Source of the DNA: Candidatus Micrarchaeota archaeon
Lineage (GTDB): Archaea > Micrarchaeota > Micrarchaeia > Anstonellales > Bilamarchaeaceae
DNA: 64,000 bases
Direction: 5' to 3'
Assembly (NCBI GenBank): GCA_040754495.1
Contig: JBFMCO010000028.1
Location: 1 to 64,000 of the forward strand
The position numbers and the translations under genes are program-made. The stretch's first letter is position 1; every line of letters starts with the position of its first letter. The notes beneath the pieces are model-generated. The model did no database searches, was not told where the DNA came from, and saw only the letters and a program-made list of their open reading frames with translations. Of this stretch, positions 7,811 to 51,079 are shown one piece after another.

Positions 7811-7919
7811 CGGGCAGCCGGTTTCCGGCAGCCCGTTTCCGGTTCCCGGCAGCGTTGGCGGGGTTTCCGGTTGTGGGTTTTTGCTTCCGCCACGAAACAA
7901 CCCACGGCTGGCGGCCGGG
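7811..7919. repeat. Degenerate heptamer (GGTTTCC/GGAAACC) repeat element
   Basis: CCGGTTTCCGGCAGCCCGTTTCCGGTTCCCGG... between convergent genes. Confidence 0.65.
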
Positions 7920-10300: not shown

Positions 10301-11602
10301 ATGAGACTGACGTTTTATGGCGGGGCCCAGGAGGTGGGGCGCGCGTGCATGCTCCTCGAGGAAGGGAAGAAGAACCTCGTCCTGGACTGCGGGATCAAGC
10401 TTGGCGAGAAGACCGAATACCCGCTGCTCCACGACGACGAGCTCCGGCGCATCAGCGCCATAGCCATATCGCACGCGCACCTCGACCACAGCGGCTACCT
10501 GCCGCACGTGTACTCCAAGGGCGCGAGGCCGAAGATATTCCTCACAAAACCCACTAGGGACCTCATGGGCGTGCTCCTTTCCGACTACTACCGCATCCAC
10601 GAGGGCGGGCGCGAGAGGCGCAAGCTCTTCTCGTCAAAGGACGTGGACGGGGTGATGAGGGATGCCAGGATCATCGAGTACCACGAGCCAGTGGAGAGCG
10701 ATTTCAGGCTCACGTTCTATTCGGCAGGCCACATAATGGGGAGCGCAATCACCCTGGTTGAGAACGGCCCGCAGAGGCTGCTCTTCAGCGGGGACATATG
10801 CATGCGCAGGACGAGGGTGCTCGAGCCGGCGGAGAAGGGCATAGCGGCCGAGACGCTCATCGTCGAGACCACCTATGGCGGGAGGAATGATGCGATACCC
10901 GGCTACAAGGAGAGCTACCAGCGGATGATATCGATAATAAACGAGACGCTGGACTCGGGCGGGCACGTCATAATCCCGAGCTTCGCCGTGGGCCGCGCGC
11001 AGGAGGTCCTGCTGGCCCTGGACGACTACATGCGCTCGGGCGCCCTCCGGCCGTGCAAAATCTTCATAGAGGGCATGATAGGCAAGGCCATGAAGATATA
11101 CCGCCACAACGCGATATACGCCAACGAGGACATCAAGCGCAGGATACTGATGAGCGAGGACGACCCGTTCAATTCCCCGAACTTCCACCACCCGCGCTCG
11201 AAGAGCAGGGAGGACGTCCTGAAGGAGCCGGCCATAATAGTCACCACGTCAGGCATGCTGACAGGCGGGCCGGTGCTGTTCTACCTGGAGAAGCTCGGGG
11301 GCGACCCGAAAAATTCCATCATATTCGTGGGCTACCAGGCCGAGGGCACGCCAGGGAGCAGGCTGATGGCAGGGCAAAAGAGCATACAGATACGGGACAA
11401 GGAAATAGACGTAAGGATGAGGGTCGAGGGCGTGAGGCTCTCGGGGCACGCCGACTACAACGAGCTTGTGCAGTTCGTGAAGTCGGTCAGGGGCCTCAAA
11501 AGGGTGTTCCTGATGCACGGCGAGAAGACAGACCTCAAAGACGCGCTCGAAAAGGACTACGAGGTCGTGGTGCCCAGGCTGCTCGAGACCTATTCTGTAT
11601 AG
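10301..11602 (+). CDS. MBL-fold beta-CASP ribonuclease (aCPSF-like, no KH domains)
   Basis: GGAQEVGRAC, SHAHLDHSG, AGHIMG, ETTYG, LSGHAD, MHGE motifs. Confidence 0.92.
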   Translation: MRLTFYGGAQEVGRACMLLEEGKKNLVLDCGIKLGEKTEYPLLHDDELRRISAIAISHAHLDHSGYLPHVYSKGARPKIFLTKPTRDLMGVLLSDYYRIHEGGRERRKLFSSKDVDGVMRDARIIEYHEPVESDFRLTFYSAGHIMGSAITLVENGPQRLLFSGDICMRRTRVLEPAEKGIAAETLIVETTYGGRNDAIPGYKESYQRMISIINETLDSGGHVIIPSFAVGRAQEVLLALDDYMRSGALRPCKIFIEGMIGKAMKIYRHNAIYANEDIKRRILMSEDDPFNSPNFHHPRSKSREDVLKEPAIIVTTSGMLTGGPVLFYLEKLGGDPKNSIIFVGYQAEGTPGSRLMAGQKSIQIRDKEIDVRMRVEGVRLSGHADYNELVQFVKSVRGLKRVFLMHGEKTDLKDALEKDYEVVVPRLLETYSV

Positions 11603-11663
11603 GAAAGAAGAGAAGGAAAACCCGGAACACTAAACTGGAAACCCGATGCTGGCTGCCGGAGAC

Positions 11664-13745
11664 TCACGTAAATTCCCAGCACTCGGGCTCGCCGACAAAG
11701 AACGGCGCGTAGCAGAACTTGGACGCATCCCCGTTTATAATCGCCCATATCTTGCCCGTGCTGCCAGGGCTTGCCGTGATGGTGAAGCCCGTGCCGGAAT
11801 CGTCCGAGTCTCCGAGCGTCACGCCTCCCTCGGGGGACCAGGTGACGTTCGTGCAGGTCTCGTTCGCGTGCTCTCCGCATTTGATGCCCACCCAGCCGTT
11901 GTAGCCGGGGTATACGTTGAGCGGCCCGCTCCCGATTGTGCAGTATTGCGTCGAGCCCTCGTTGCCCGGGTCGCCGCCGGTGGTGTTGTTGCCGCCGCCG
12001 GAGCTTACCTGGACCGAGGAGAAGCACACGGAGCCGAGGATGGGGTCGGGCGCCGCCGCGAATCCGGCAAAGCCCCTTATCTTGCCGCTTGTGGCCCCGC
12101 CCGGAGCGGTGTACGTAGCTCCGGCGACGCTGTCGTTGCCGATGGCGCCGGCAAGGCCGTCTATGAGGTCGTAATCCGCGCTGTCAGGGTCGGTAGGGCT
12201 GCCCGATACGAAGCCGTTCAGCTCGAAGAACTTGGCCTGGTTCAAGGCCATGTTGGCGCTCGGCGGCAGGAGGTCGCACTCGTACGTCGGGTTCGTCACG
12301 GTGATGTTGGAGCCGCAGAGAGCGAGTCCGGACGTGTAGTTCAGCGTGCCATCGGAGCCCGGAGGCGAGGTCGTGTATGCCTGCGCCATGCTGCTGGTCC
12401 TCGTTATGAAATCGCCCGTAAGGCCGACCCAGAACCAGTTGTTGCCGATGCAGGGCGTCGGGTCGGCTGAAAGGTCGAAGCACTGGACTCCGAATTCCGC
12501 GACCTCATTCGTGCCGAGCGTCAGGCTGTCAGGGTCCACGTCGCACGTTATCGGCCCGGTGAGGGGCACGTCCTCGTTGCATGTCGCAGCCCCGCCGCAT
12601 GTGGCCGAGACGGTCTCGGCCTGGAAATTGAGCGTGGTCCCCCCCGAGGCGCCGGCCTGGCGCTCTATGAGGACATAGAGGTCCATGTCGCTTCCGGAGT
12701 TTATCGTGTCATTGAAGTGGTTGTCTGACGGGCACATGGACGGAGGCAGGCCGAGGGTTCCGCAGAGGCCGGACGGGAACGGCTCGACCGTGTATCCCGA
12801 ATTCGAGCTGGTGACCCCGGTCACGCGGATGGGGTCGCCGTCGTTGTGCATCGTCACCCTCACCTTCATCAGGTCCTCGTCGCCGAGCGCGGTCGGGGAG
12901 CTGATGCTGGTCTCGTGCATGTCGCACGTGCCGCCGGAATTCTGGACGTTGATGTTTATCGTGTCCGTGCCCACTGTCGCGGGGACGGCTGGGCCGTTGT
13001 GGGTGAAGAAGTCGAGCCAGAACCACAACGGGTTGTCATCGATGTTGAGCGGGTGCTTCACCACCGAGCCGAAGCACTCCACCCCGGAAAGCCGGCTGGA
13101 TATTGCGTGCGCACCGGCGCTGCCGGCACCGAAGTCCACGTTGCCTGCGCTCGGCATGGCGGAGGAGCCTTTCACGGTCGCGCCGTCAAGGACCTCGAAG
13201 GTTCCCTTGCAGAACACCGCTGCGCCGCCTTCCTTGTTGGCATGGAACTGTCCGGTCACGTTGTTGTAGGTCACCGGCTGGTTCGCGAAATTCGACGGGC
13301 CAAGAGTATTGTAGCGGTTCACGTCCGCCGAGTAGTCGTTCGCGTCGCCGAAAGTCTTCTGGCTGTTCCACGTGGCGGCTGGGAGCCAGCCGATGTTCCG
13401 GTTCTGGGTAACCCCGCCGCTTGGTACCATGGCAGGGCAGAATCCGCCTCCGCAGGTCGGGTAGATTGCGACAGCCGCGAAATCCGGCGTCGCCCACCTT
13501 GAAGTGACCGTCGGCAGGACGCGGAGCGTCGCGCCGGTGCAGACCGTGTCGCCGTTCTGCAGGTTGTTCGGGTCCCCGCTAGACACGTCCCCTGCGATCA
13601 CGCGGAGCGTGAAGTCCGTGGTGAACTGCATGTCGGTGTCGAAATGCCACGTCGGGTCCGAGCCCTGCCAGACCGCGTTGTTCACGTTAGTGGCGAACGA
13701 CGCGGACAAAAGAGCGAACAGCGCGAAAACGGTCTTGTGGTCCAT
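11664..13745 (-). CDS. Secreted Cys-rich surface protein with three C-terminal Ig-like repeats
   Basis: Signal peptide MDHKTVFALFALLSASFA; many Cys; repeats start CDVDPDSLTL, CDLLPPSANM, CTIGSGPLNV. Confidence 0.75.
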   Translation of the reverse strand: MDHKTVFALFALLSASFATNVNNAVWQGSDPTWHFDTDMQFTTDFTLRVIAGDVSSGDPNNLQNGDTVCTGATLRVLPTVTSRWATPDFAAVAIYPTCGGGFCPAMVPSGGVTQNRNIGWLPAATWNSQKTFGDANDYSADVNRYNTLGPSNFANQPVTYNNVTGQFHANKEGGAAVFCKGTFEVLDGATVKGSSAMPSAGNVDFGAGSAGAHAISSRLSGVECFGSVVKHPLNIDDNPLWFWLDFFTHNGPAVPATVGTDTININVQNSGGTCDMHETSISSPTALGDEDLMKVRVTMHNDGDPIRVTGVTSSNSGYTVEPFPSGLCGTLGLPPSMCPSDNHFNDTINSGSDMDLYVLIERQAGASGGTTLNFQAETVSATCGGAATCNEDVPLTGPITCDVDPDSLTLGTNEVAEFGVQCFDLSADPTPCIGNNWFWVGLTGDFITRTSSMAQAYTTSPPGSDGTLNYTSGLALCGSNITVTNPTYECDLLPPSANMALNQAKFFELNGFVSGSPTDPDSADYDLIDGLAGAIGNDSVAGATYTAPGGATSGKIRGFAGFAAAPDPILGSVCFSSVQVSSGGGNNTTGGDPGNEGSTQYCTIGSGPLNVYPGYNGWVGIKCGEHANETCTNVTWSPEGGVTLGDSDDSGTGFTITASPGSTGKIWAIINGDASKFCYAPFFVGEPECWEFT

Positions 13746-13746
13746 C

Positions 13747-15666
13747 CTACCTCTCCCTCCTCTTGCGGGGCACTGCCTCTCCGGAGATGCGCTTCTCGCC
13801 CTCCCCGCCCTTGAACCATGCCCCAGGCGTAATCGTGATGTTGAGCGAACCGTACGGCGAAGCCGGGATGCGCTGCTCCTCGGGCCCGCCGACTTCGCCT
13901 AGATAGCCGCCGCGGACGTCCACCGACACTCCGCGGTCGAACCTGAAGCCGAAGACGCCGAAGCCGTCGAGCGTGTGGCTGCCGGACGAGATGTTGTAGT
14001 CGTACCTGAAGCCCGGGCTGAAGAACAGGGACCAGTTCGGGTTCAGCTGCCATGTGAAGTCGGCCGGCCTGAGCTCGGCACCGACGCGGTGCTGCTCGAG
14101 GAAATACGAGTACTGGGGGGTGATTTCGGAGCGTATCCTCATCGTGTTCCCCTCCATCCAGTTGCCCTCGAAGCTTATGTTCGCGTAAACGTTCGTCGGC
14201 GCGCCCACTATCCCCGCGCCGACCCTGGACATCCTGACCGGGGCGCGCTGGCCCTCGCGGCCCGGGAACCTCACCTCCACGCCGGTCACGCCGAGATACG
14301 CGCCCTGGTCGCCGACCTGCACCCTCTGCGTGGCGCCGGTCTGGTCCGCCACATCCGCGCCTATTTCCCACGCGCGGTAGCCGACGTTGGCATGAAGGAC
14401 GATTTCCATCGGGTTGCCCCATGCGCTCGCGCCTATGCCTATCTGCGGCGTGACGCCGATAACGTGGCCCGTTCCCTCGAGCCTGCGGCTTCCCACCTGG
14501 CGGACGCCTCCGGCTTCGCCTGCGGCGCCCGGAGTTACCTCGAACTGCCGGAGCTGGCCGCTCATGAGCAGGTATTCGTAGTGCAGGCCGAGCGCGAGCC
14601 ACAGCACGCGGGGCTGGAACTCGCTGTCCCTAGAGCCCCGGATGAACTCGGTGAATGCCTCCATGTTCCTGTCGAACTCGTACCTGACCGTGACCCCCGC
14701 CCGCATGACCGCGATGGCACGCTGGTTCACGCTGATGACGTAGAGGTTGTTGAGCTGGCCGTACACCGCGTTCAGGGCCGGCTCCTGCGACAGCTCGGCA
14801 AGGCCGGTGCGCAGGTCGCCGCGCGATAGGGCCGCCATTGCCGCGGCGAAGTGAGGATGCACCGAGGAGTTCCATATCTCCTTGTTGGATGGTATCTGGC
14901 TGAGCGACTGGTGAAGCGCCTGCGCGGCAGCCGTCTGCGCCGCGATATCGTTCGGATGGTTGGTGAGCGTAGCGTACGCGTTGCCGAGCGAGGTCATCGC
15001 GCCGACTGCGTTGCTCTCGCCGCCGAACATGGAGTTCAGGGCCGGGGTGCTGCTCGCGTTTACGGCCACGAGGCTTTCGTTCGCGGAGCTGCTAAGAAGG
15101 TGAATCGGGCCCATGTCGCGGAGCTGCGTCTCGATGAGCGGCAGGGACTGCCTTGTTGCGGCCTGGTCCTCGGCCCTCGGCGCCTGCGCAAGGGCACCGC
15201 CGCGGCTTGTGCGTATGAGGGCCGCTATCTCGGTCCCTATGGTTTCATATGAGGAGTACTGGGCCTCGCCCTGCCCGATGCCCGCATCAATCGGCACGAG
15301 CGTCCTCTCGAGCGGCTGCGCCTGGTCCCCGAGCGTCCCTCCGCCCTGCACGAGCTCGTGCGTGCGGCGGATGGCGGCGATGTGGGAGCGCACGAGGTAC
15401 GCGACCGCGCCGTCGCGGCCGTTCCCCTCGCCGAGCACCCGGATTGCCTCGTCATAGACAGCCCTGCGGGCGTCGCCTTCGGGCGGCCGGTCGCCCCTCA
15501 TGAGCGTGATGAGTTCCCCTATGCGGACCGCGTACTGCGCCTGCGACTGCGCGTTCGGCGCGTTAGTCGGATGTGTCGCGCTCATCGGCCGGCTGAGGTC
15601 GTTTATCAGCGTAATCTGAGGATTCGCAGCTTCTTCCCTTCTTTCCCGAGTCGCAGGTCCGGTCAT
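13747..15666 (-). CDS. Helical N-terminal domain plus predicted transmembrane beta-barrel domain (paralog A)
   Basis: 639 aa; about 13 alternating hydrophobic/polar strands in the C-terminal ~300 aa; clear paralog of 15859-18006; RBS GAGGTGA. Confidence 0.7.
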   Translation of the reverse strand: MTGPATRERREEAANPQITLINDLSRPMSATHPTNAPNAQSQAQYAVRIGELITLMRGDRPPEGDARRAVYDEAIRVLGEGNGRDGAVAYLVRSHIAAIRRTHELVQGGGTLGDQAQPLERTLVPIDAGIGQGEAQYSSYETIGTEIAALIRTSRGGALAQAPRAEDQAATRQSLPLIETQLRDMGPIHLLSSSANESLVAVNASSTPALNSMFGGESNAVGAMTSLGNAYATLTNHPNDIAAQTAAAQALHQSLSQIPSNKEIWNSSVHPHFAAAMAALSRGDLRTGLAELSQEPALNAVYGQLNNLYVISVNQRAIAVMRAGVTVRYEFDRNMEAFTEFIRGSRDSEFQPRVLWLALGLHYEYLLMSGQLRQFEVTPGAAGEAGGVRQVGSRRLEGTGHVIGVTPQIGIGASAWGNPMEIVLHANVGYRAWEIGADVADQTGATQRVQVGDQGAYLGVTGVEVRFPGREGQRAPVRMSRVGAGIVGAPTNVYANISFEGNWMEGNTMRIRSEITPQYSYFLEQHRVGAELRPADFTWQLNPNWSLFFSPGFRYDYNISSGSHTLDGFGVFGFRFDRGVSVDVRGGYLGEVGGPEEQRIPASPYGSLNITITPGAWFKGGEGEKRISGEAVPRKRRER

Positions 15667-15751
15667 AGATTAGTCACCTCAATAATGACGCTTTAACACT
15701 TGGGGCGTGGTTATTAAAAAGATGCCCGGCCCGGAACGTCGGTGCGGCAGG

Positions 15752-15848
15752 GCGAGGGTTTCGGGTCTCCGGTTTCCTGTTTCCGGTTTCCGGTTTCGGG
15801 TTTTGCGCTCCCGGTACGGGGGACTGGAAACCGGATGCTGGCAGCCCG
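15752..15848. repeat. Heptamer repeat element
   Basis: CCGGTTTCCTGTTTCCGGTTTCCGGTTTCGGG ... TGGAAACCGGATGCTGGCAGCCC. Confidence 0.7.
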
Positions 15849-15858
15849 TCCGCCATGC

Positions 15859-18006
15859 TTACCGCCTTTCCCCGCTGTCGGTTCCGAGCCTGACTCCGCC
15901 GCTCACGCTTCCGCTGCTCCCCCAGTACCCTGGCGTGAGCACGAGGTTGAGCGTGCCGGTGACCGAGTCCGGGACGTGGTATGCCTCCTGCCCGAAGCGG
16001 TCCATGAAGTAGCCAACGCGCGCATCAAGGGCGACCCCGCCGGCGTATCTGAAGCTCGCATGCACGTACGGCTCGAAGCTGTGGATGAGGTGCTCGGTGT
16101 TCAGGTCGTACCTCAGCCCCGGGCCGAAGTACCACGTCCAGTTCTGCCCGCTCTGGATGCTGAAGTCTATCGGCCGCAGGTCCGCGCCCACGCGGTGCTG
16201 GAAGAACCATGAGTCGTCGAGCAGCTCCTGCCTCTTCCCCCAGAACAGCATGTAGTGGGGCGTGAGCGAGGTCTCGAGGCGCAGCGCGTTGCCCTCGGTC
16301 CACCTCTGCGACAGCGTGAAATATGCGTAGGGGTTCGTGTTGAACGTGCCGAGGCCCCACCTGCTCAGCCTGAACGAGGACATCCGCCCCTCGTAGCCGA
16401 CCATGGCGACGTCGAAGTTCAGCAGCCCGTATATGCTGCCCTGGTTGACTGAGAGCCTCTCGGCGCTGCCGTTTATGTTCACGGTCTGGTCTATGTTCCA
16501 CCAGAGGTAGCCGAGCCTCCCCGTGAGCGTGGTCTCGACCGGCTGGCTGAACATGCTCCCGCCCCAGGTCACCCCCGCCTGGAGGTCTATGGCATGGCCG
16601 TCGCCTTCGACAGGGCGGGCCGGGCCGCGCGAGACGGCCTGGTTCGTGGCCGGGTCTATGGATACCGTCTGGTCCCGCCCGCTCATGAGCAGCCAGGCGT
16701 AGTTGGCGCCCACGTCATAATGCAGGACGTCCCAGGCATAAGGCCGGTCGGACGTGCCGCGCCGGTATGCCTGGAACTCGGTGATGTTCTCCTGCTCGGG
16801 GAACCTGAGTATGAGGCTGGTGCGGATGCGCGCGAGCGCCCGCTGGCTTATCGTGACCTGGTGGAGGTTGCCGAGGGAGTCGTAAACCGCGTTGAACGCG
16901 ACCTCGCGCCTCAGCGCATCGAGCCCCCCGCGGAGGTCTCCCCTTGAAAGGGCCTGCATGGCCGCTGCGAAGTTCGGGTGAACGCTCTCGTTCCATATCT
17001 CCTTGTCCGAGGGAATCCTGCTGAGTGCCGAGTGGAGCGCCCGTGCCGCATCGGCCTGCGCCGAGAGGTCGCCGGGGCTGTTCATCATCACCGCATACGC
17101 GCTCGCGAGCGTGTTCAGGGATTCCTGCGCAATGGACTCGCCGCCGAAGAGGGAGTTCAGAGCGGGCGTGGACGCGGCGTCGAGCGCCACGAACTGCCTG
17201 TTGCCGAAGCCGCTCAGGAAGAACTGCGAGCCGAAATCGAACGGGAGCATAGCTATGAGCGGGAGCGACGGGTTCGTTACAGCCCGGTCCTGCTGCGTCG
17301 GGTGGTCGGTAATCCTCCCGCCCCTTATGGCGCGGATGAGCTCGGCCACTTCTGAGCTGACCGGGTCCAGCGCCTCGTAATTGCTCTCGCCCATCGCGAC
17401 TCCGCGCTCGATGCGCACGAGCCTCTGCTCGAGGCCGGCGGTCTCTATCCTCGCGTTCTCGTCTGCGGCCACCATGCCGTGCAGCCTGTGAAGCGCGGTC
17501 GAGTACGCGCGGGTCACGGCGTCGAGGGCCGTGCCGCGGTTGTTCCCGTAGAGCGCCATCGCACGGTCGTAAACGGGCCGCCTCGCATCGCCTGATGCCG
17601 GGGGGTTGAGAAGCAGTTCGCGTATGTCGTGCAGCCTGACAAGGTTGACCGAGAGGGCTTCCATCGTCGGCGCGTTCACCGGGTGGGTGATTGCGGTGAC
17701 ATCCCCGGGCAGGGCATTCAGCGTGGTGATGAGCTGGTCGTTCGTCGGCGCGCTGGCAGTAGCTCCGCCATCGGCCCTCTGCACCGCGGCCGGCTGTCTG
17801 GGCGGGGGCGGCTGGGAGGGGCCTCCGTCCTGGGCCAGCGCGTATCCGGGCGCGATGAGGCCGGCGACTGCGAGCGTGCCCGCGACCATGAACTCCCGCG
17901 CTCTCCTCGCGGTCGCTTCAAATCTGGTGGTTCCCCGTGTTTCCTTGTCGTTGATGCCGTTTGTCAGTCTCAAGCCTATCCCCTCCCTCTGCGAATATCC
18001 ATCCAC
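15859..18006 (-). CDS. Exported protein with helical domain plus predicted transmembrane beta-barrel (paralog B)
   Basis: 715 aa; signal-like FMVAGTLAVAGLIAPGYALA/QD; amphipathic strands such as IDLQAGVTW, WYFGPGLRYDL, VALDARVGYF. Confidence 0.7.
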   Translation of the reverse strand: MDGYSQREGIGLRLTNGINDKETRGTTRFEATARRAREFMVAGTLAVAGLIAPGYALAQDGGPSQPPPPRQPAAVQRADGGATASAPTNDQLITTLNALPGDVTAITHPVNAPTMEALSVNLVRLHDIRELLLNPPASGDARRPVYDRAMALYGNNRGTALDAVTRAYSTALHRLHGMVAADENARIETAGLEQRLVRIERGVAMGESNYEALDPVSSEVAELIRAIRGGRITDHPTQQDRAVTNPSLPLIAMLPFDFGSQFFLSGFGNRQFVALDAASTPALNSLFGGESIAQESLNTLASAYAVMMNSPGDLSAQADAARALHSALSRIPSDKEIWNESVHPNFAAAMQALSRGDLRGGLDALRREVAFNAVYDSLGNLHQVTISQRALARIRTSLILRFPEQENITEFQAYRRGTSDRPYAWDVLHYDVGANYAWLLMSGRDQTVSIDPATNQAVSRGPARPVEGDGHAIDLQAGVTWGGSMFSQPVETTLTGRLGYLWWNIDQTVNINGSAERLSVNQGSIYGLLNFDVAMVGYEGRMSSFRLSRWGLGTFNTNPYAYFTLSQRWTEGNALRLETSLTPHYMLFWGKRQELLDDSWFFQHRVGADLRPIDFSIQSGQNWTWYFGPGLRYDLNTEHLIHSFEPYVHASFRYAGGVALDARVGYFMDRFGQEAYHVPDSVTGTLNLVLTPGYWGSSGSVSGGVRLGTDSGERR

Positions 18007-18015
18007 CCTCTAGTA

Positions 18016-21000
18016 TTACTGCCTTGTAGCGCTCGGCCTCACGATGAGCACCGGCGTGGTGTCGCCGTATTCGACGACCGTGTTGGCAGGCGACGCCCTC
18101 TCGAAGCACACGTGCTGCGTGCCAGCCTCGTGGCTCATGCTGCGCTCCAGGCGCGCGTCCCTGATTGGCTCAAGCGTGCCCGCACGAACCTGGTAGAGGA
18201 CGTTCTCTGCCCTCACCCTGCCGTTGTCCTCGAGGACCGGGACCCACTCGGGGCCGGTCGAGGCCGCAAGGCCCGAGCGCCTCACGCGTACGACGAAGTC
18301 GCCCCTCGTGCCGTCGCTGAGCGTAACGCCCCTCATGACCTGGCCGAGGTATCTCGGCGCTCCGGATTCGCGGTACTGCGGGTTCAGGACGTACTGTATG
18401 GGCGAGCCGGACGAATCCGTCGGGCCGAGCACCTGGTACATGAACCAGTAGTATGTGAGGTTCTGCTGGCCGTGCTGCCTCTGGTACGTGTCGAGGTCGA
18501 CCGCGGAGCCGCTCCTGGGCTGTATCATGGTGCGCGTGGCCGAGAACCGGACGCGCCTCGGGTCTCCCGAGAGCCTCTCGACGCTTATTGCGTCCTGAGC
18601 CACGTAAGCGGATATCTCCGGCGTGACCACGGTCGGCCTCGGGATGTCCGTGAGGCGGCCGCCCGTGCCGTCCGTGAGGCTTTCGAGCCCCACCTCGGCC
18701 ACCGCTATGCCAATCCTCGGGTCTACGCGGCCTGCGAAAAGGTCCTGGTCCATGGCCGCTGCGGCGTCCCTGCGGACTCTCTGCGCCTCGGCAAGGGCGG
18801 CCTCTGCCCTAGTAATATATCTTACGCCGGGGGCCGGCCTCCTCTGCGCTCCTGTCCCGGCCACGGTGGACTGCTTGAGGTCCTGCACCCGAATCGGCTG
18901 GCCGTCCGCGAGCACGACGTTGCCGCCGAGCCGGTTGGACAGCTCGGCAATCCGTATGTCGAGGATAGCAAGGAACAGCCGGTTTACCTCGCGCTGCTGC
19001 GCCGCGGCGTCGCGCGAAGAATATGAGACGGATATCTCAGTCATCCGCTCGCCGAGCGCCTGCATGAGCGGCCTGCCGGCCGGAAGCCCGTATTCGCGCG
19101 CGATGCGCTGCATCTCGGTCTTGAGCGCGCGGTCCTGCGCCTCGTACGGAGTGCCCGTCCTTATCGGCCAGGAATCCGGCGCGTTGTTGAGCATGCGCAG
19201 GAGCGACGGCGTCGAATCATCTCCGCGCGTTATCGTCTGCCTGAAGAGCTCGGCGTATGCCTGCCCCCAGCGGTAGTGGTCCATGCCCTCGTGTGCGACG
19301 CTGGCCATGGCCTCATCGCCCGGGTTCTCGCCAGGCACCCAGTGCTGGTCCACCGGGCTGACCGTGGTCCTGCGCCTGCCTGCGAACCGCTCCATGTTCG
19401 GGAATCCGCCGAGCTGGTCCACGGCCGCTATCCTGCCCATCCTGAAATCAAGGGCTCCGAAAGGCCCGGAAAGGCTCCTTCCGGACATTGTGCGCTCGGT
19501 GGCCGAGGGCCCGAAGAGCGTCGCCTCGTCCCTGAGGCTGATGAGAAGCGATATGTGCCTCTGCTCGGCCGCGGCTGCTGCGGAGCGGCGCTCGGCCGAT
19601 GTCGGGTTGGCGGCATCCGCGACGGTCACTTCGGTCGCCGGCGTCCCATATGCGGCCAGCGACGCGAACATCGCCGGGGCCTCGCTCACGGCAAGCGGCC
19701 TCGGCGCGAGCATGTTTATGGCCTCTTCGGCGTAGTTCCTCGAGATGTTCGGGTGGAACGTGCCTGCAAGGTCCGGGTAGTTCAGCAGGAACTGGGCCCT
19801 CGCGCGGCTTATTACGTCGCGGGCTGATGTCAGCGTCGCCGATGGCAGCGATGTGGGGCGCATGCCCGCGTTCGCGACCCAGAGCTCGGCCTCCCTTATC
19901 GTGGAGAGGTTGAGCGCCATCTGGAAGAGCGTATCCGATACGAGAGGTATCTGCGCTGCCGGCGGGGCGGTAGCGGTGGCGGCCAGCCAGGCGTTCGCTG
20001 CCTGTATGAGCGCATCGTCCGCGGCCATGCCCGAGTCGCGCGCGAGCTGGACGGATGTCTCGAGGAATCCCCTGGCCATGGTGAGCCTCTCCTGGCTCTG
20101 CCCGTCCACCGGGACGTATGCAGCGCCGACCCTCCTCGTTCCCATCTGGTACGGGAGATACTCGGTCTCGAAAACAGGCCTCACCGAGCGGAGCCTCGCC
20201 ACATGCTGGACGTAGCCCTCGTTGGAGAGCGGCGCCCTCCTCGATATCTGGTCATAGACGCCGTAGAGGACGTCGTCGTGCACGTACTGCTTGGACTGCA
20301 TGAGGGCCGGAATCACCGCGCGCTCGGCATCCTGCCTCTGCCTGGCCGTGACAGTCGTTCCCGGCGTAAGGCCGAGGTGCAGCTCCACGATTCTCGTGCG
20401 CACCTGCTGGGAATAAGCGTTGTACGGGTTGAACTGCGGGTCGACGAGCGTCATTGAGGCTATGGAGTAGTTCTCCCACATGGGGATGCGGTCGCTCTGG
20501 TCCATGCCGTGGCCGCGGGCGTATTCCCACATGTCCACGAGCGTGTTGACGGTCCTCTCATCAGAGGTAACGGACTGGTAGAGGTCCGCGACCACGCGGA
20601 ACGGAATCCCGGCGGTCTGGCCCGAAAGGGCCCTTGCCTGGGTAAGCCGGACCTGCATGCTAGATTCAAGGTCCTCGCGGCCGTTCCTCTTGCCGTGCGA
20701 TGTGCGCGAATAGGTGCCTGCGCGGACCGAGTCGCGCCTCTCTGCCGCCTGGAGTTCCGCCCTCGTCGGCAGGTGGCTGGAATGAATCCTCGCCACCGCG
20801 CCGTCCGCTATCGGGATGACGCCCTGGTCGAGTATGAGCCGGTAAAACGCCTGCTCCCTCTGGAAGAGCTGCCTGGCTTCTGCTATCTTGCTTGCATCCG
20901 TGCGGCCGGCCTCGAGAAGGGAGAGCATCTGCTCCATGGGCCTCTCGCCGAGCAGCCAGACGCTGGGCAGGAGCTGCGCGATGTCGCGCGCTGCCTGCGT

Positions 21001-22020
21001 CGATGCGTTAGCCGGGTCCTGGACCCACTGCGAGAGCGCGGTGTACCTGTCGTTGAGCGGGTGCGCCCTGGCCTCGGAGACGGTGTAGCCCGCCGTTGTG
21101 GCGCCGGCCTCGAGAGCGCGCCTCCGCGCGTCGACTATCTCGCCGCTGTTTCCGTCGCGGCCGTAGGCGAACCTGCGTGCCTCCGCCACCTTGTCGTCGA
21201 CGCTTCTCTGGCGGATTGGGGTGCGGTCTATCTCGCGGTTGAGCTCGCGGATGAGCCTCCCTGCCCTGTCCCGGACCGTCCTGCTCTGGCCGCTCTGCTG
21301 GATTGCGTTCAGGTCGTCCAGAAGCTGCTGGTTCTGGGTGCGGAGCGTCTCGGCCGTGACGGCCGGAACTACGACCGGCGCAGGCACCACCGTCGGGGCG
21401 GGCTGGGCGGTCTGAGCCGGCTGGGCTGGCTGCGGCGCACCGAGCGTCGGGACTACCACGGCCTGGACTGCGTCCGCTCCACCGCCGCTGAGGGCGATGT
21501 TCGTCCTGAGGAGAAGCTCGGTGAGCACTGCGTCGTTTATTGAGCTGTCCTGGGTCCTGCCGGTGAGTCCGGACCGTGTGCGCCAGGAGGAGTTGAGCCA
21601 GGTGTTGACCGAGCGGAACCTTTCCTGCGGCGTGGTGCCGGTCACTGGGATGCCGAGCCTCTGCGCGTTCGTGGCCAGAGTCTCGATGAGCGTATTGACC
21701 GGAGCGTCGAGCTGGGAAATCTCGGCAGGCACGCCGGCGCGCCTCTTCTCGTCCATGAGCCTGCGAACCGCGTCGAGCTGGGTGACGAGCGTGTCCCTCA
21801 GAGCCTCAGCAGTCCTAACATCCGCCTGCCGCGAATCCTGCGCAGCAGCCTCGCGCATACCCGGTCCAGTCATAGTAGCACCCGCCGTAAAAGCAACAAG
21901 CAGGAATCGCCCGAAATACGACGTCCTGCGCCCGATATGAACATTCCCGGAGTTAGGATTTAAATATTCGCGCTCCCCCCCGACTGAATCTTGAGAATGT
22001 CTAAGCCTCGGTCCACCCAT
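18016..22020 (-). CDS. Giant (about 1334 aa) Arg/Ala/Gln-rich, probably exported helical protein
   Basis: ATG at 22020 with GGGGAGG RBS; signal-like FLLVAFTAGATMTGPGMREAAA/QD; alternative start at 21873 (MTGPG); shares a helical module with the two barrel proteins. Confidence 0.75.
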   Translation of the reverse strand: MGGPRLRHSQDSVGGEREYLNPNSGNVHIGRRTSYFGRFLLVAFTAGATMTGPGMREAAAQDSRQADVRTAEALRDTLVTQLDAVRRLMDEKRRAGVPAEISQLDAPVNTLIETLATNAQRLGIPVTGTTPQERFRSVNTWLNSSWRTRSGLTGRTQDSSINDAVLTELLLRTNIALSGGGADAVQAVVVPTLGAPQPAQPAQTAQPAPTVVPAPVVVPAVTAETLRTQNQQLLDDLNAIQQSGQSRTVRDRAGRLIRELNREIDRTPIRQRSVDDKVAEARRFAYGRDGNSGEIVDARRRALEAGATTAGYTVSEARAHPLNDRYTALSQWVQDPANASTQAARDIAQLLPSVWLLGERPMEQMLSLLEAGRTDASKIAEARQLFQREQAFYRLILDQGVIPIADGAVARIHSSHLPTRAELQAAERRDSVRAGTYSRTSHGKRNGREDLESSMQVRLTQARALSGQTAGIPFRVVADLYQSVTSDERTVNTLVDMWEYARGHGMDQSDRIPMWENYSIASMTLVDPQFNPYNAYSQQVRTRIVELHLGLTPGTTVTARQRQDAERAVIPALMQSKQYVHDDVLYGVYDQISRRAPLSNEGYVQHVARLRSVRPVFETEYLPYQMGTRRVGAAYVPVDGQSQERLTMARGFLETSVQLARDSGMAADDALIQAANAWLAATATAPPAAQIPLVSDTLFQMALNLSTIREAELWVANAGMRPTSLPSATLTSARDVISRARAQFLLNYPDLAGTFHPNISRNYAEEAINMLAPRPLAVSEAPAMFASLAAYGTPATEVTVADAANPTSAERRSAAAAAEQRHISLLISLRDEATLFGPSATERTMSGRSLSGPFGALDFRMGRIAAVDQLGGFPNMERFAGRRRTTVSPVDQHWVPGENPGDEAMASVAHEGMDHYRWGQAYAELFRQTITRGDDSTPSLLRMLNNAPDSWPIRTGTPYEAQDRALKTEMQRIAREYGLPAGRPLMQALGERMTEISVSYSSRDAAAQQREVNRLFLAILDIRIAELSNRLGGNVVLADGQPIRVQDLKQSTVAGTGAQRRPAPGVRYITRAEAALAEAQRVRRDAAAAMDQDLFAGRVDPRIGIAVAEVGLESLTDGTGGRLTDIPRPTVVTPEISAYVAQDAISVERLSGDPRRVRFSATRTMIQPRSGSAVDLDTYQRQHGQQNLTYYWFMYQVLGPTDSSGSPIQYVLNPQYRESGAPRYLGQVMRGVTLSDGTRGDFVVRVRRSGLAASTGPEWVPVLEDNGRVRAENVLYQVRAGTLEPIRDARLERSMSHEAGTQHVCFERASPANTVVEYGDTTPVLIVRPSATRQ

Positions 22021-22230
22021 GTTAAGCAGCCTCCCCTCGTAAACACTGTTGTATATTATTTGAAACACATGGTTTTTAAACCAATCTTTTCCACCGTCGA
22101 TAACTATCCGGGAGCCCTCCCTCCGGTGCCCGGGTGCGGTGATATGGGGGATAATATGCCCGAACATGTATATAAATATTATAGAATTTGGTTGTTTGCG
22201 CCTTTTGAAGAGCAGGGGGCTCCCTAAAAC

Positions 22231-22839
22231 TCAGGCGGCCTTGGCCGCGGGCTTTGCGGACTTGCCCTTCCGGACGATGAAGCCGGCCACCTGCATGACG
22301 ATGACTAGGGCGCCCAGGGCGAGGAGGGCGTATTCCGCGATGTTGGTGGGGCGGGCGCCGGTGGTTATCCCGCTCTGGGCGAGGAAATGGAACGGTGACA
22401 GGACGAAAGCGATGTAATTGAGCTGTTGTATCCGCTTCCACCACGGCCCGAGGCGGGCGAGGGCGAGGTCGTTCGATACTGCGGCTATCACGAGGAGGAT
22501 TATGGCGGCGGCGGCCCCTATCTGCAGGGGGAGGAAACCCAGCATCATCTCTATGTTCCAGCCGAAATACAGCGCGGTTACGAGAAGGCCGTGCACGAGC
22601 ACGAAGATGAACGCGGAAAGGCCGACCGCCCTCCGCGGCTCGACTAACGGGGCGAATTCCTTCGGCCGGAAGACGAAAAGCGGGCCTATCACGAGGCTGA
22701 CGCAGAGCAGGAGGAACGCGGATACCCCCATGAATCGGATGATAAGCTGCGCAGGCTGACCTTCGAGCGTGGCGTAATAGCCGGCAACGAGCGCGAGCGT
22801 TACCAGAAGCAGGAAGAACAGCATGCTGTGTTTCTGCAT
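22231..22839 (-). CDS. Ferric reductase-like/MsrQ (YedZ) heme-binding membrane protein
   Basis: PRRAVGLSAFIFVLVH and WKRIQQLNY...PFHF motifs, multiple TM helices. Confidence 0.8.
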   Translation of the reverse strand: MQKHSMLFFLLLVTLALVAGYYATLEGQPAQLIIRFMGVSAFLLLCVSLVIGPLFVFRPKEFAPLVEPRRAVGLSAFIFVLVHGLLVTALYFGWNIEMMLGFLPLQIGAAAAIILLVIAAVSNDLALARLGPWWKRIQQLNYIAFVLSPFHFLAQSGITTGARPTNIAEYALLALGALVIVMQVAGFIVRKGKSAKPAAKAA

Positions 22840-22943
22840 GCAGATGCATCGGAAACTGGGATTAAAAAGCATCCACTAACTTCCGCGCCAGCCTGCAACC
22901 CGGCCCCCGAAAGGGCAATAAGCCTTTGGAGAATCATCTTCCC

Positions 22944-29024: not shown

Positions 29025-29735
29025 CTAGCCGCGCTCGCGCTCCGCCCTGCTTCTCCACCGGACATCTATTCGGCTGATGACATCAAGGTCCGGGGTTTCG
29101 CCCCTGGCGTGCGCGCTGGCGAACTCCCTCTGGATGGCCACGTACGCAGGCCTCGCGGCGGCCATGAACTGGTCCCGGGTAAGCATGACTTCCCTGCCCT
29201 GGGCGTCGGTCGTGGTTATCCGGAAGTCGCTCGGCGCCGCGCTTTCGAGGTAGGTTATGAGCCTGCCGCCCTTCGTCTGGTCCGCGCGCGTCATGGTACC
29301 GCTCCACCTCAGGTCCCGGTTCGCGTCTATGGTATATGTCCGGCCGTCCACCGTGACCTCGTAGGAATGCCTGTGCGTCATGACCGGCGCGGGAGGCGTC
29401 CTGAGGGTGATTTCCGGCGAGATGTTCCGGATGCCGAGGTTCCTGTTGAGAAGCCTGCGGGCCTCGTCGAACCTCTTGTTGAGGCGGTGGTTGAGGATTT
29501 CGTTAAGCCTCGTAGCCACATTCATGAAGTCGCCTTGGGCCATGTAGGGCGGAACTACGACCCCCTCCCTTCCCCTTGCCACCTGGTCGGCGCGGGTGTA
29601 AATCTCACGCGCCTGCAGCGGGGAATATCCGAGCGCCTGCAACTGGGATATAACGGTCCTCTGGACCTCCTGCTGGGTAAGCCCCGTTGTCTCTTCCGCT
29701 CCTCCTCTCCTCCTCTGGGCTGGTGCTCCTGTCAT
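29025..29735 (-). CDS. Arg/Gln-rich hypothetical protein, tandem paralog 1 (MTGAPAQRR)
   Basis: RBS AGGTG; PVMT...YEVTVDGRTY matches the neighbouring paralogs. Confidence 0.75.
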   Translation of the reverse strand: MTGAPAQRRRGGAEETTGLTQQEVQRTVISQLQALGYSPLQAREIYTRADQVARGREGVVVPPYMAQGDFMNVATRLNEILNHRLNKRFDEARRLLNRNLGIRNISPEITLRTPPAPVMTHRHSYEVTVDGRTYTIDANRDLRWSGTMTRADQTKGGRLITYLESAAPSDFRITTTDAQGREVMLTRDQFMAAARPAYVAIQREFASAHARGETPDLDVISRIDVRWRSRAERERG

Positions 29736-29744
29736 AATAACACC

Positions 29745-30401
29745 TCACGGGTTCCTCGTCCGCCTGCCCTGCTGGGGCGCCATGGCGATGCGTATGTCCG
29801 GCCGCTCCACGTACTGGCCGTTCGTGTAGGTCCTTCCGACATAATCGTCGCGGAAGATGTCGAGCCTCTGGTTCGGCGCGCCTGAGTTGAATGCGGCCGA
29901 TTCGGCATCCCTTCCGACGCGCGTAACCTGCGCATACACGACCTGCCCTCCGCTTTCCACGAGCTTGTTGTTGAGGAGGAGGTCGTGGAGGATGGCCCTT
30001 GCGGCAACTTCATCCACCCTGCCGTTCGGCCTTGTCGGGAGGGGGTCCGGAAGGGCGACCTGGTAGGTCCTGTTGCCGAGCGTGACTTCATACACAGTAG
30101 CTTGGGTCATGCGTGGAGCCGGCCTTGGCTGCTGCGTCGGGGCCGGAGGCTGCGCCCTCTGCGGCACGGGCGAGAGCTGGGTGGGCTGCTGGCCGAGCTG
30201 CCGGGCAACCTCCTTCAGGCGCTCGGCTGCCTCCGCAAGGCGCTCGCTCTGCTCCATGAGCCTGCGCGCCTGGCTTGGCGGGATGGGCGAGCGAATCGGC
30301 GACAGGGCGTTTGCGATGTCCATCAGGGCGTCCCTTACCACCCTCAGCGTTCTATCCTGCTCCGTTTCCCGTTCTGGCCTTCTTTGTGCTGGTCCCGTCA
30401 T
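29745..30401 (-). CDS. Arg/Gln-rich hypothetical protein, tandem paralog 2 (MTGPAQRR)
   Basis: RBS AGGTGA; C-terminal region near-identical to paralog 3. Confidence 0.8.
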   Translation of the reverse strand: MTGPAQRRPERETEQDRTLRVVRDALMDIANALSPIRSPIPPSQARRLMEQSERLAEAAERLKEVARQLGQQPTQLSPVPQRAQPPAPTQQPRPAPRMTQATVYEVTLGNRTYQVALPDPLPTRPNGRVDEVAARAILHDLLLNNKLVESGGQVVYAQVTRVGRDAESAAFNSGAPNQRLDIFRDDYVGRTYTNGQYVERPDIRIAMAPQQGRRTRNP

Positions 30402-30410
30402 CAAATCACC

Positions 30411-31025
30411 TTAAGGATTCCTCGTCCGCCTGCCCTGCTGGGGCGCCATGGCGATGCGTATGTCCGGCCGCTCCACGTACTGGCCGTTCGTGTAGGTCCT
30501 TCCGACATAATCGTCGCGGAAGATGTCGAGCCTCTGGTTCGGCGCGCCTGAGTTGAATGCGGCCGATTCGGCATCCCTTCCGACGCGCGTAACCTGCGCA
30601 TACACGGCCTGCCCTCCGCTCTCGACAAGCCTGTTGTTGAGGAGGAGGTCGTGGAGGATGGCCCTTGCGGCCACTTCATCGACCTGGCCGCTGCGGGTGG
30701 TCGGGAGGGCCTGGGGAAGGGCGACCTGGTAGGTCCTGTTCCCGAGGTTGACCTGATAGACGAATGCCTGCGTCATCTGTGGTGCCGGCCTCGGCTGCTG
30801 GACCGGACCGGCCTGCTGGGGCGTCTTCTGCGGCACGGGCGAGGGGCGGCTCAGAAGGTTCTCGATTGTGTTGAGAAGCTCCCGCAGCGCGTCCCTTAAG
30901 CGCTCCAGTACCGGCCTCGGAGGCGGCCTGATTTGCACTTCCTGCCTAAATCTCTCGAGCGCCTCCGGATTGATCGTTATTACATGCTGCTCCGCTTCAG
31001 GTCTTCTTTGTGCGGGTCCAGTCAT
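30411..31025 (-). CDS. Arg/Gln-rich hypothetical protein, tandem paralog 3 (MTGPAQRR)
   Basis: 189-bp identity with paralog 2 at the 3' end; divergent helical N-terminus. Confidence 0.8.
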   Translation of the reverse strand: MTGPAQRRPEAEQHVITINPEALERFRQEVQIRPPPRPVLERLRDALRELLNTIENLLSRPSPVPQKTPQQAGPVQQPRPAPQMTQAFVYQVNLGNRTYQVALPQALPTTRSGQVDEVAARAILHDLLLNNRLVESGGQAVYAQVTRVGRDAESAAFNSGAPNQRLDIFRDDYVGRTYTNGQYVERPDIRIAMAPQQGRRTRNP

Positions 31026-31088
31026 AATATCACACAAAATGTATATTCGAAGAGAAGATTTTTTAACAGGCTTAGTATCAGATATGAT

Positions 31089-44691: not shown

Positions 44692-44800
44692 GGGCCCGTG
44701 TGGCAACCTGGATAACCGGCAGGGCTTCGGATGCCTTTGACCGATTGCGGTCTTTTGCTGGAGCCACCCTGAGATGCGGGTTCAAATCCCGTCGGGCCCG
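44692..44800 (+). tRNA. tRNA-Arg(TCG) with 35-nt intron at 37/38 (44731-44765)
   Basis: GGGCCCG/CGGGCCC acceptor, CAGGG/CCCTG stem, CT TCG G|...|A loop, BHB CTTC/GGAG, GTTCAAATC T-loop. Confidence 0.88.
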
Positions 44801-50139: not shown

Positions 50140-50982
50140 TCAGGCAGGCTTTGGCGGAGGCTCCTCTCCGTCCCAGACGCTCCAGTCATAAATTGCATTC
50201 ACCGGTATCCCTCCACGGACCATGAAGGTTTTTCCGTATTCGCATCTGACGCCCATGCATTCCGGGTCGGCGAAAATGCTCCTGCTTTCCATTAGCCTTG
50301 GAACGTCTATATGGAACCGCACCTGCACCTCCCCGGTTCCATAAACCGAACCCCCCATGTCCCCGGCATCCTCCTCGTATTTCTTCAGGTACATGAACGA
50401 TTTTGCCGGTTCGGTAATTGCCGGGTTGATTATTACGCCCCCTTCAAGGGCGCTTATGAAACTGCGGAAAGATGAGCGGTCGGGGCGCAGGTGGCCGTCG
50501 AAAGCGAATGCCGCCCGGTCATGGTTCAGGAAGCGGTCGGGAAGCGAGAGCGGAACCAGGTGGACAAGATAGGACGACTCGGCATCCATATAGTCTTCCA
50601 CGCTCGGGGGGCCTGCCTGTCCCGGGCGCCTGCTCATCAGGGCTTCTTCATACGCCCGCTTCCACCTGCGCATCTCTGCCAGCACTTTTTCCCTGAATTC
50701 CGGCGGAACCGCGTCTATCAGCCTGTATTCGTAGATAATCCCCAGGCGTGCGGCCTCTTCCCTCCGCCTTTCTATGAAACCATATGAGAAGAGGGTCTCA
50801 GAATCCGATTCATCGAAAGAATCCCATGGCATGCATTGCCGGTACGGATAAGCGAACTCAGGCAGGCTGACTTTTTCCGGCTTTATCGGGTCCGGCTGGA
50901 CCTTGTGCCTGTTTTCAAGTACCCTCGAAAGGGCGGTTTTTACCTCCCTCCGAAGAGCTGCTTCCCGCTGTCTGCCATACAT
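50140..50982 (-). CDS. Hypothetical protein
   Basis: 280-aa ORF convergent on korB. Confidence 0.55.
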   Translation of the reverse strand: MYGRQREAALRREVKTALSRVLENRHKVQPDPIKPEKVSLPEFAYPYRQCMPWDSFDESDSETLFSYGFIERRREEAARLGIIYEYRLIDAVPPEFREKVLAEMRRWKRAYEEALMSRRPGQAGPPSVEDYMDAESSYLVHLVPLSLPDRFLNHDRAAFAFDGHLRPDRSSFRSFISALEGGVIINPAITEPAKSFMYLKKYEEDAGDMGGSVYGTGEVQVRFHIDVPRLMESRSIFADPECMGVRCEYGKTFMVRGGIPVNAIYDWSVWDGEEPPPKPA

Positions 50983-51079
50983 ATTGTTATATTTAATGGT
51001 AAAATATTATAAATCAACCCATAACAGCGCCTGCGGCAATAAGCAGGATAAAATAGTTATCGGGGGCAGAACCATTATC

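Follow-up and report, generated by a model that had tools for sequence, protein, structure and literature searches.

We describe here a four-gene cluster in a window of 64,000 nucleotides (nt), by which we mean the whole stretch of DNA analysed, forming part of contig C28 (JBFMCO010000028.1) of a 1.63-Mb metagenome-assembled genome (GCA_040754495.1) that is 80% complete and belongs to the Micrarchaeota, one of the DPANN archaea. Four large genes lie head to tail in the same orientation on its minus strand, and they encode a giant protein, two paralogous proteins with a predicted beta-barrel (barrel B and barrel A) and an immunoglobulin-like (Ig-like) protein. We tentatively suggest, with slightly less than even confidence, that these genes make up a lineage-specific envelope or host-contact module of one micrarchaeal family, confined mostly to one genus, in which the barrel would act as an anchor or pore, the Ig-like protein as a fibre and the giant protein as a scaffold. 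A hitherto undescribed module of this kind is proposed because the kept gene order, the exported-looking products, the fast evolution of the sequences and the coupling of the barrel and Ig-like genes together fit it.

18016-22020 from the conserved start (longest open reading frame to 22167), minus strand: giant protein gene, 1334 amino acids
15859-17973 (TTG start, 704 amino acids) or to 18006 (GTG start, 715 amino acids), minus strand: barrel B (barB)
13747-15666, minus strand: barrel A (barA), 639 amino acids
11664-13745, minus strand: Ig-like protein gene, 693 amino acids

The four co-oriented genes had been recognised in an earlier reading of the same DNA made from its letters alone (the original prediction), and the giant start at nt 22020 agrees with the alignment of orthologues, which begin at the same position; this start (MGGPRLRH) is M50 of the longest open reading frame (ORF). 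Gaps between the longest ORFs are 9 nt (giant-barB), 192 nt (barB-barA) and 1 nt (barA-Ig). The tight spacing claimed for the cluster is confirmed; the 9-nt gap is more likely one of 42 nt, with barB starting at TTG 17973, because GGGAGGGG precedes this codon and the resulting product of 704 amino acids is the one found in the protein database. The cluster region has a G+C content of 64-67%, compared with about 60% in its flanks. None of the four proteins has a match in Pfam or NCBIfam, and PDB sequence searches with the proteins or their alignments gave nothing usable.

For synteny we compared 12 loci of other species in the genus. Ten of them show the complete series of giant, barrel(s) and Ig-like protein in this order, and the two remaining loci, on short contigs, keep what they cover, so that the conserved synteny looked for at the outset is present in all relatives' loci that span it. 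Giant orthologues occur in every locus covering that position, a beta-CASP nuclease gene lies downstream in 8 of the 12, and diverged triads were found in two additional genus members and also in a second genus (L026-L029). What varies is the number of barrels: the window and seven relatives have two genes, five more distant species (L017-L021) have a single one of barA type, and barB is restricted to a subclade of the genus, where it always stands upstream of barA. The cluster proteins are 29-61% identical to their orthologues, as against 66-80% for the adjacent beta-CASP nuclease. In a phylum-wide sample of 301 genomes, the barrel profile gave hits in 19 of the 22 genomes belonging to the genus and weak ones in three genomes from other genera of the same family (four genera in all), with none among 236 genomes from other families of the phylum. 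When compared with 1.84 billion representative proteins, the same profile found 112; ten that were sampled carry no Pfam domain, and the three named ones among these come from Micrarchaeota. All named homologues of the cluster proteins likewise belong to Candidatus Micrarchaeota or Micrarchaeia. The Ig-like family is broader, occurring in 18 of the 23 genera of the family, and in one of these (g19) the Ig-like gene follows a 497-amino-acid protein that matches the N-terminal domain of the barrel protein only faintly.

Barrel A and barrel B are paralogues over their full length (39% identity over 617 amino acids, E 1e-136). An AlphaFold2 model of barrel A, obtained from a 28-sequence alignment with a mean predicted local distance difference test score (pLDDT) of 81.2 and a predicted TM score of 0.62, consists of a helical domain of about 300 residues (approximately 16-305) followed by long antiparallel strands (approximately 308-612) that are predicted to close into a 12-14-stranded beta-barrel; judged from this paralogue, barrel B should likewise have a helical domain and a C-terminal barrel. 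Strands in the model are up to 29 residues long and the loops are all short, and the alternation of hydrophobic and polar residues is strict in all 12 strands throughout the family. In both paralogues the last strand, which ends near residue 612 of 639 in barrel A, is followed by a disordered and charged tail of 25-30 residues. The giant protein and both barrels are extremely poor in lysine, with 0.4-0.6% (0.6% in barrel A), compared with 4.4% in the long ORFs of the genome.

Foldseek found no PDB match for the whole barrel A model at E <= 0.001. In a wide search with VIA-align, the top 47 matches were all bacterial outer-membrane barrels, including CymA (4d5b; Z 15.7, root-mean-square deviation (rmsd) 3.6 Å over 238 residues), the COG4313 channel (4rl8) and FapF (5o65) with Z 14.6 each, KdgM (4pr7; Z 14.3, 2.8 Å), OmpG (2f1c; Z 14.0), autotransporter beta-domains (Z 13.6-14.0), and FadL (1t16) and TodX (3brz) with Z 13-14; barrel A superposes on solved 12-14-strand barrels at 2.8-3.6 Å over 170-238 residues. 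A shape search of the ESM Atlas returned solely clusters of bacterial outer-membrane proteins, including the tetratricopeptide repeat (TPR)-plus-barrel types Slam and BBP2, and the Atlas's own alignment-free ESM model of barrel A, together with language-model features, likewise pointed to bacterial outer-membrane proteins. The label "barrel" given in the original prediction is thus backed by structure prediction and structure search, and the closed antiparallel barrel of 8-26 strands that characterises the MBB superfamily is present in the predicted model with 12-14 strands. At the level of sequence, two of the 28 family members match PF13505 below threshold (one at E 4e-4, the other at 0.1 or better); the family has no significant sequence-profile match to the outer-membrane barrel clan MBB (PF13505, PF03349, PF03797, PF06178, PF04575 and others), and a PDB profile search with it found nothing. 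Neither barrel A nor barrel B ends in a beta-signal with an aromatic residue at the very C-terminus, and a search for Omp85/BamA (PF01103), positive in seven diderm control genomes, gave no hit in the 80%-complete genome.

Three of the four products carry export signals. The giant protein, barrel B and their orthologues share the N-terminal layout that had been noticed in the window sequence, namely an extended, hydrophilic leader of about 30-40 residues, often starting M-x-(K/R)-L-R, then a hydrophobic segment of 12-19 residues and an AxA-Q(D/E) site. In the giant protein the leader is about 30 residues long; in barrel B the signal-peptide-like segment has its hydrophobic window at residues 39-57 and is followed by an ALA-QD site. 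Export through the Tat system was considered and rejected, as neither leader conserves a twin arginine and a search of the 80%-complete genome for TatC (PF00902) was negative. The Ig-like protein has a Sec-type signal peptide. Barrel A has no signal peptide, here and in nine relatives, and one is present in barrel B and in the single barrels of L018 and L019. Where the only barrel gene of a species lacks a signal, a leader and hydrophobic segment resembling those of barB are encoded by a small ORF upstream of it (L017:9720-9926, L020:6459-6620, L021:8660-8883). Each of these ORFs terminates at the ribosome-binding site of barA, with a frame relation that differs in all three, and in L018 and L019 the leader is joined to the barrel protein itself. 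Part of the apparent conservation overlaps the promoter DNA of barA. As a separate observation, the first three residues of barrel A (MTG, MGG, MAQ or MGQ, depending on the species) are identical in seven of nine species (loci L010-L021) to the Met-tripeptide that directly follows the hydrophobic segment of the giant protein of the same genome; this might reflect a mature N-terminus or docking motif common to both proteins, an internal start, or a gene-conversion event. At least five more signal-less ORFs begin with a barA-like motif of the MTGPAQRR type (on contigs C19 and C41 and in the window), three of which are tandem minus-strand paralogues at 29025-31037.

The giant protein contains 0.5% lysine and 10.7% arginine, and its crude composition suggests a body that is largely helical and, at the C-terminal end, a domain of about 190 residues rich in beta structure. 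It has no sequence match in Pfam, NCBIfam or PDB, and an ESM Atlas look-up gave no usable hit. Conservation is highest in the C-terminal domain (47% mean identity), and a standalone copy of it is encoded elsewhere in the genome as a 238-amino-acid protein (C19:15040-15756, which is L033:1198-1914) that is 61% identical (E 4e-77), nearer to the domain of the giant than most giant orthologues are to one another. Because this copy bears a twin-arginine-like RRDFLK signal and a lipobox-like cysteine (AGIGC), the C-terminal domain of the giant is taken to work outside the cytoplasm, and in the proposed module outside the cell. An ORF of 2828 amino acids on another contig (C16:2411-10898) has an extended leader like that of the giant (MAGPRLS..., with a hydrophobic segment about 40 residues in), and such leaders may be a lineage-specific type for very large exported proteins.

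The original prediction had also derived the giant protein and the barrels from one expanded family, on the strength of a helical module of about 100 residues thought to be common to three genes. This did not hold: the two barrels are full-length paralogues, and the giant has no similarity to them by BLASTP. Profile comparison with hhalign, using profiles of 11 and 28 sequences, gave probabilities of 0.7% for the whole proteins, 0.15% (E 0.38) for the named segments and 0.18% for the N-terminal half of the barrels, so that the giant is to be regarded as unrelated and the cluster as comprising three protein families.

The Ig-like protein is clearly secreted and is probably glycosylated. It has an isoelectric point of 4.1, nine N-x-S/T sequons and 21 cysteines, 19 of which are invariant, and it ends in a conserved C-terminus of CWEF type. 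Its AlphaFold2 model (pLDDT 70.6) is a chain of tandem beta-sandwiches, for which Foldseek, at E values between 1e-8 and 4e-11, returned cadherin ectodomains, invasin and the bacterial S-layer proteins EA1, SbsB and Sap, with FdeC also among the fold matches; the label "Ig-like" is in this way supported by the model and its matches, and there is no Pfam match to Big, LysM or intimin domains. The N-terminal approximately 200 residues are the most widely kept part. An internal domain (residues 397-583) occurs in one to four copies in relatives, and through its repeats the protein reaches 1169-1466 amino acids in some of them (L027:1792-6192, L029:3570-7079), a variation in length that is typical of surface fibres.

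The cluster does not replace the S-layer. With a profile built from two S-layer-type proteins of Micrarchaeota, homologues were detected in this genome and in 21 of 21 genomes of the genus, and because these homologues lie elsewhere in the genome, the cluster is additional to the S-layer and not its substitute. PF05123 itself was not found in this genome or in the 21 genomes of the genus, and none of the four cluster proteins matches it. The canonical S-layer gene of about 950 amino acids is present here as fragments only (C39:2001-2828, C43:6-560 and C45:806-1660), at least one of which (C43) lies at a contig end; this suggests that strain variation has broken the assembly at that place.

The signals for expression, listed below, are read mostly from sequence patterns and their positions in relatives.

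22029-22186, minus strand: AT-rich promoter-like region, with TATA-like boxes at 22168-22186, 22073-22080 and 22051-22065
22030-22038, minus strand: Shine-Dalgarno-like GAGGGGAGG before the giant gene
15667-15858, minus strand: barB-barA spacer, with a 20-nt motif at 15823-15842 and a heptamer array at 15757-15803
15711-15720, minus strand: TATA-like box TTTTTAATAA, about 45-50 nt upstream of barA
15674-15680, minus strand: Shine-Dalgarno sequence GAGGTGA of barA
11602-11653, minus strand: terminator-like region after the Ig-like gene, with a 20-nt motif at 11634-11653, then a T-rich tract at 11602-11620

The AT-rich, promoter-like stretch expected upstream of the giant gene is there, with its putative TATA-like boxes spread over 22051-22186; a sigma-70 promoter scan of the same region returned nothing, as expected for an archaeon, and is uninformative here. 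The heptamer repeat reported in one of the gaps is likewise real, with 6.7 copies of a CGGAAAC-type unit in the barB-barA spacer. It is the reverse complement of GGTTTCC-like heptamers which, together with longer degenerate runs, are found just after the stop codons of many genes genome-wide (in the window, for example, at 7818-7826). A 20-nt motif follows the stop codons of barB and of the Ig-like gene and is found nowhere else in the window (two matches, 0 expected), and the short related motif CSGGTTTCC occurs eight times in the window vs 1.7 expected. The 20-nt motif belongs to the genome-wide family of GGTTTCC-like heptamers, which is probably a lineage-specific terminator signal; the predicted RNA fold of the barB-barA spacer is no better than that of shuffled sequences (z -0.64), and the same is true of the region after the Ig-like gene. 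Since barA has its own TATA-like box, which together with its Shine-Dalgarno sequence is kept at the same distance in relatives, and since a terminator-like motif follows barB, the cluster is likely divided into two transcription units, giant-barB and barA-Ig, and a single operon is not supported.

Within the second of these units the connection is closer. The Ig-like gene starts 1 nt past the stop codon of barA, with its Shine-Dalgarno sequence inside the 3' end of barA, and the stop and start abut or overlap in every locus, by 4 nt in L015, L018, L020 and L021, which argues for translational coupling of the two genes. Co-folding of barrel A (residues 14-625) with the Ig-like protein (19-400) gave a score of 0.42, the best of three controls being 0.00; at least 41% of contacts are shared between runs, and the partner's pLDDT is 78 or more. 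Of 80 solved complexes 58 reached the mark used for such predictions, as did 2 of 110 mismatched pairs, and passing scores of 0.60 or less were obtained by only 7 of the 80 solved complexes and by both of the passing mismatches, so the result lends weak support to the pairing and mildly raises the chance that the two proteins bind.

Taken together, these features lead us to the following candidate scenario for a module of three unrelated protein families in a fixed order. The exported, lysine-poor giant protein of about 1,330 amino acids would serve as a scaffold in the space under the S-layer, and the barrel protein would be seated in a lipid membrane, either that of its own cell or that of a partner cell, as an anchor or pore. 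The Ig-like protein, produced in a fixed ratio from the coupled downstream gene, might dock to the barrel protein via its conserved N-terminal domain, leaving the variable Ig-like repeats to project outward as a contact surface. The synteny, the exported-looking products, the fast evolution and the coupling back the original prediction in part. What the analysis shows are the genes with their conserved order, export signals on three of the products and the predicted folds; insertion in a membrane, the union of the products in one complex and an adhesive or host-contact role are inferred.

Several points weigh against such a module. The structural evidence consists entirely of prediction, and the hydrophobic face of the barrel may be the outer, lipid-facing one or the inner one. 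Barrel A lacks a signal peptide in three of the five single-barrel species and in all two-barrel species and has no evident export route, no Omp85/BamA was found in the 80%-complete genome, and the barrel end is not aromatic, the last strand being followed by the charged tail of 25-30 residues. Cultivated Micrarchaeota are reported to have a cytoplasmic membrane and an S-layer, not two membranes (bioRxiv 10.1101/2021.04.28.441871), and because the genus keeps that S-layer gene, the barrel has no known membrane to sit in except the cytoplasmic one or that of a host. Finally, the promoter-like box of barA means that the four genes need not share one transcript, and the support from co-folding is weak. 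A bolder form of the proposal would be that this archaeon possesses genuine membrane-embedded barrels of the outer-membrane type, a family invented within Micrarchaeota, made without BamA and partly without a signal peptide, which would reside in an unrecognised second lipid layer or in the membrane of a partner and, with the Ig-like fibre and the giant, constitute a contact or uptake apparatus; we consider this rather unlikely.

The absence of a suitable membrane in the producer could also be explained if the barrels were host-directed pore formers, released or presented by the symbiont and inserted into the membrane of a partner for the uptake of metabolites, with the Ig-like protein as a host-binding adhesin and the giant as a tether. 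DPANN archaea are host-dependent, and cryo-electron tomography of a Micrarchaeon co-culture has revealed unexplained envelope-spanning structures at contact sites (PMC11329633). The lack of a producer membrane beyond the cytoplasmic one (bioRxiv 10.1101/2021.04.28.441871), the failure to find Omp85, the low lysine content of the giant and the barrels (0.4-0.6% vs 4.4%), the fast evolution and the variable number of Ig-like repeats would all suit this explanation. Known beta pore-forming toxins, however, are multi-subunit barrels, whereas the barrel predicted here is a monomeric one of 12-14 strands that resembles resident outer-membrane proteins; moreover, the genus has no known host, the proteins are not linked to any host membrane and barrel A has no recognisable export signal, and we therefore judge the explanation unlikely. 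The same lack of a signal peptide in barrel A bears on the possibility that the "barrel" is an artefact of prediction or a soluble domain, such as an amphipathic beta-sheet or sandwich that packs on the S-layer or the giant and never enters a bilayer. It would be in line with this that the family has no sequence-level membership in outer-membrane barrel families, that its strands of up to 29 residues are far longer than a bilayer needs, and that its loops are all short. Yet two independent predictors give a closed barrel that matches solved barrels at 2.8-3.6 Å over 170-238 residues, the strict hydrophobic/polar alternation is conserved in every strand and all close structural neighbours are membrane barrels, so that a soluble domain strikes us as distinctly improbable.

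The four genes could instead encode independent secreted or surface proteins, for example variable surface antigens of a symbiont, without a common machine, their order being due to shared regulation or history. The promoter-like box before barA and the terminator-like motif after barB speak for this, as do the unrelatedness of the giant to the barrels, the wider occurrence of the Ig-like family (18 of 23 genera, vs four for the barrel family), the arrangement in g19, where the neighbour of the Ig-like gene matches the N-terminal domain of the barrel protein only faintly, and the weak support from co-folding. On the other hand, the order is kept at about 30% protein identity and in two genera, the barrel and Ig-like genes abut or overlap in every locus, and the co-folding score lies above all three controls. 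We accordingly think it improbable that the proteins act independently, and an envelope or host-contact module, tentative as it is, is retained as the preferred interpretation.

Transmembrane beta-barrels count as a hallmark of the bacterial outer membrane and of organelles, and archaea are not known to make barrels of the outer-membrane type. In the literature searched we found no description of this barrel family, or of porin-like barrels in Micrarchaeota or DPANN archaea, apart from a brief mention of a possible distant relative of PopA in Altiarchaeales (PMC12228718). As context only, an unidentified barrel-shaped complex of 21 nm has been reported under the symbiont's S-layer in a Micrarchaeon co-culture (PMC11329633). 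If the barrels are real and embedded in a membrane, they would bear on the old dispute over a second membrane in Micrarchaeota/ARMAN cells and would raise the question of how barrels are inserted without the barrel-assembly machinery (BAM). If the proposal is true, the cluster would also supply gene candidates for unexplained envelope structures at the sites of contact between DPANN archaea and their hosts, and since it is small, conserved and translationally coupled, it is directly testable.

The surroundings of the cluster are archaeal in character, as the flanks carry genes for PurP-type DUF1246/DUF1297 proteins and for XPD- and Lhr-type helicases, as well as for a beta-CASP nuclease, a tRNA with a presumed intron and a further helicase that contains an intein. 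The tRNA, of 109 nt, lies at 44692-44800, where it was detected by Rfam (39.9 bits) and not reported by ARAGORN; the intein-bearing protein, a DEAD/Helicase_C protein of 1104 amino acids at 50903-54217, has an intein splicing domain inserted at residues 194-689. Upstream of the giant gene, a membrane protein of 257 amino acids (22076-22849) was considered as a further member of the cluster and rejected, having no counterpart in the loci of relatives.

Among known systems, the closest in fold are the monomeric 12-14-stranded bacterial barrels, to which residues approximately 308-612 of barrel A correspond at Z 13-15.7 and an rmsd of 2.8-5.4 Å with alternating strands, and portions of residues 177-305 align with the hatch or plug found at the N-terminus of FadL, TodX and FapF. 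In contrast to these bacterial proteins, with which there is no sequence similarity (5-10% identity in structural alignments), the barrels described here belong to an archaeon for which no outer membrane is known and in which the Omp85 search was negative; they have no C-terminal aromatic end, their strands are very long and their loops short, and barrel A has no signal. With regard to the envelope, the Micrarchaeota S-layer protein SLP_Mh, which is of PF05123 type (bioRxiv 10.1101/2021.04.28.441871), is comparable in that it comes from the same phylum and belongs to the envelope, being exported and probably glycosylated, and the Ig-like protein has bacterial S-layer proteins among its Foldseek hits; SLP_Mh, however, is of a different family from the cluster proteins, and its homologues lie elsewhere in the genome.

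The combination of a barrel of the 12-strand type with a surface-exposed Ig-like chain recalls the inverse autotransporters intimin and invasin. Autotransporter beta-domains (NalP 1uyo, BrkA 3qq2, Hbp 3aeh and EstA 3kvn) are among the best matches of barrel A, at Z 13.6-14.0, and the Foldseek hits of the Ig-like protein include invasin and FdeC. Unlike in inverse autotransporters, the barrel and the Ig-like chain are here separate polypeptides encoded by ORFs 1 nt apart, there is no LysM domain or passenger linker and no sequence similarity, and the predicted binding between the two is weakly supported. The TPR-plus-barrel proteins of the Slam (PF04575) and BBP2 types resemble the barrel proteins in having an N-terminal helical domain before a barrel of the 14-strand type and in adjoining the gene of a surface protein, and they are the nearest named ESM Atlas clusters by shape, with TM scores of 0.35-0.40 (query) and 0.47-0.53 (target). 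These TM scores are low, and the barrels have no Pfam match to PF04575, PF10082 or TPR families. By analogy, the module would work like the barrel-plus-Ig adhesins or the Slam-type barrels, yet it is a member of neither family.

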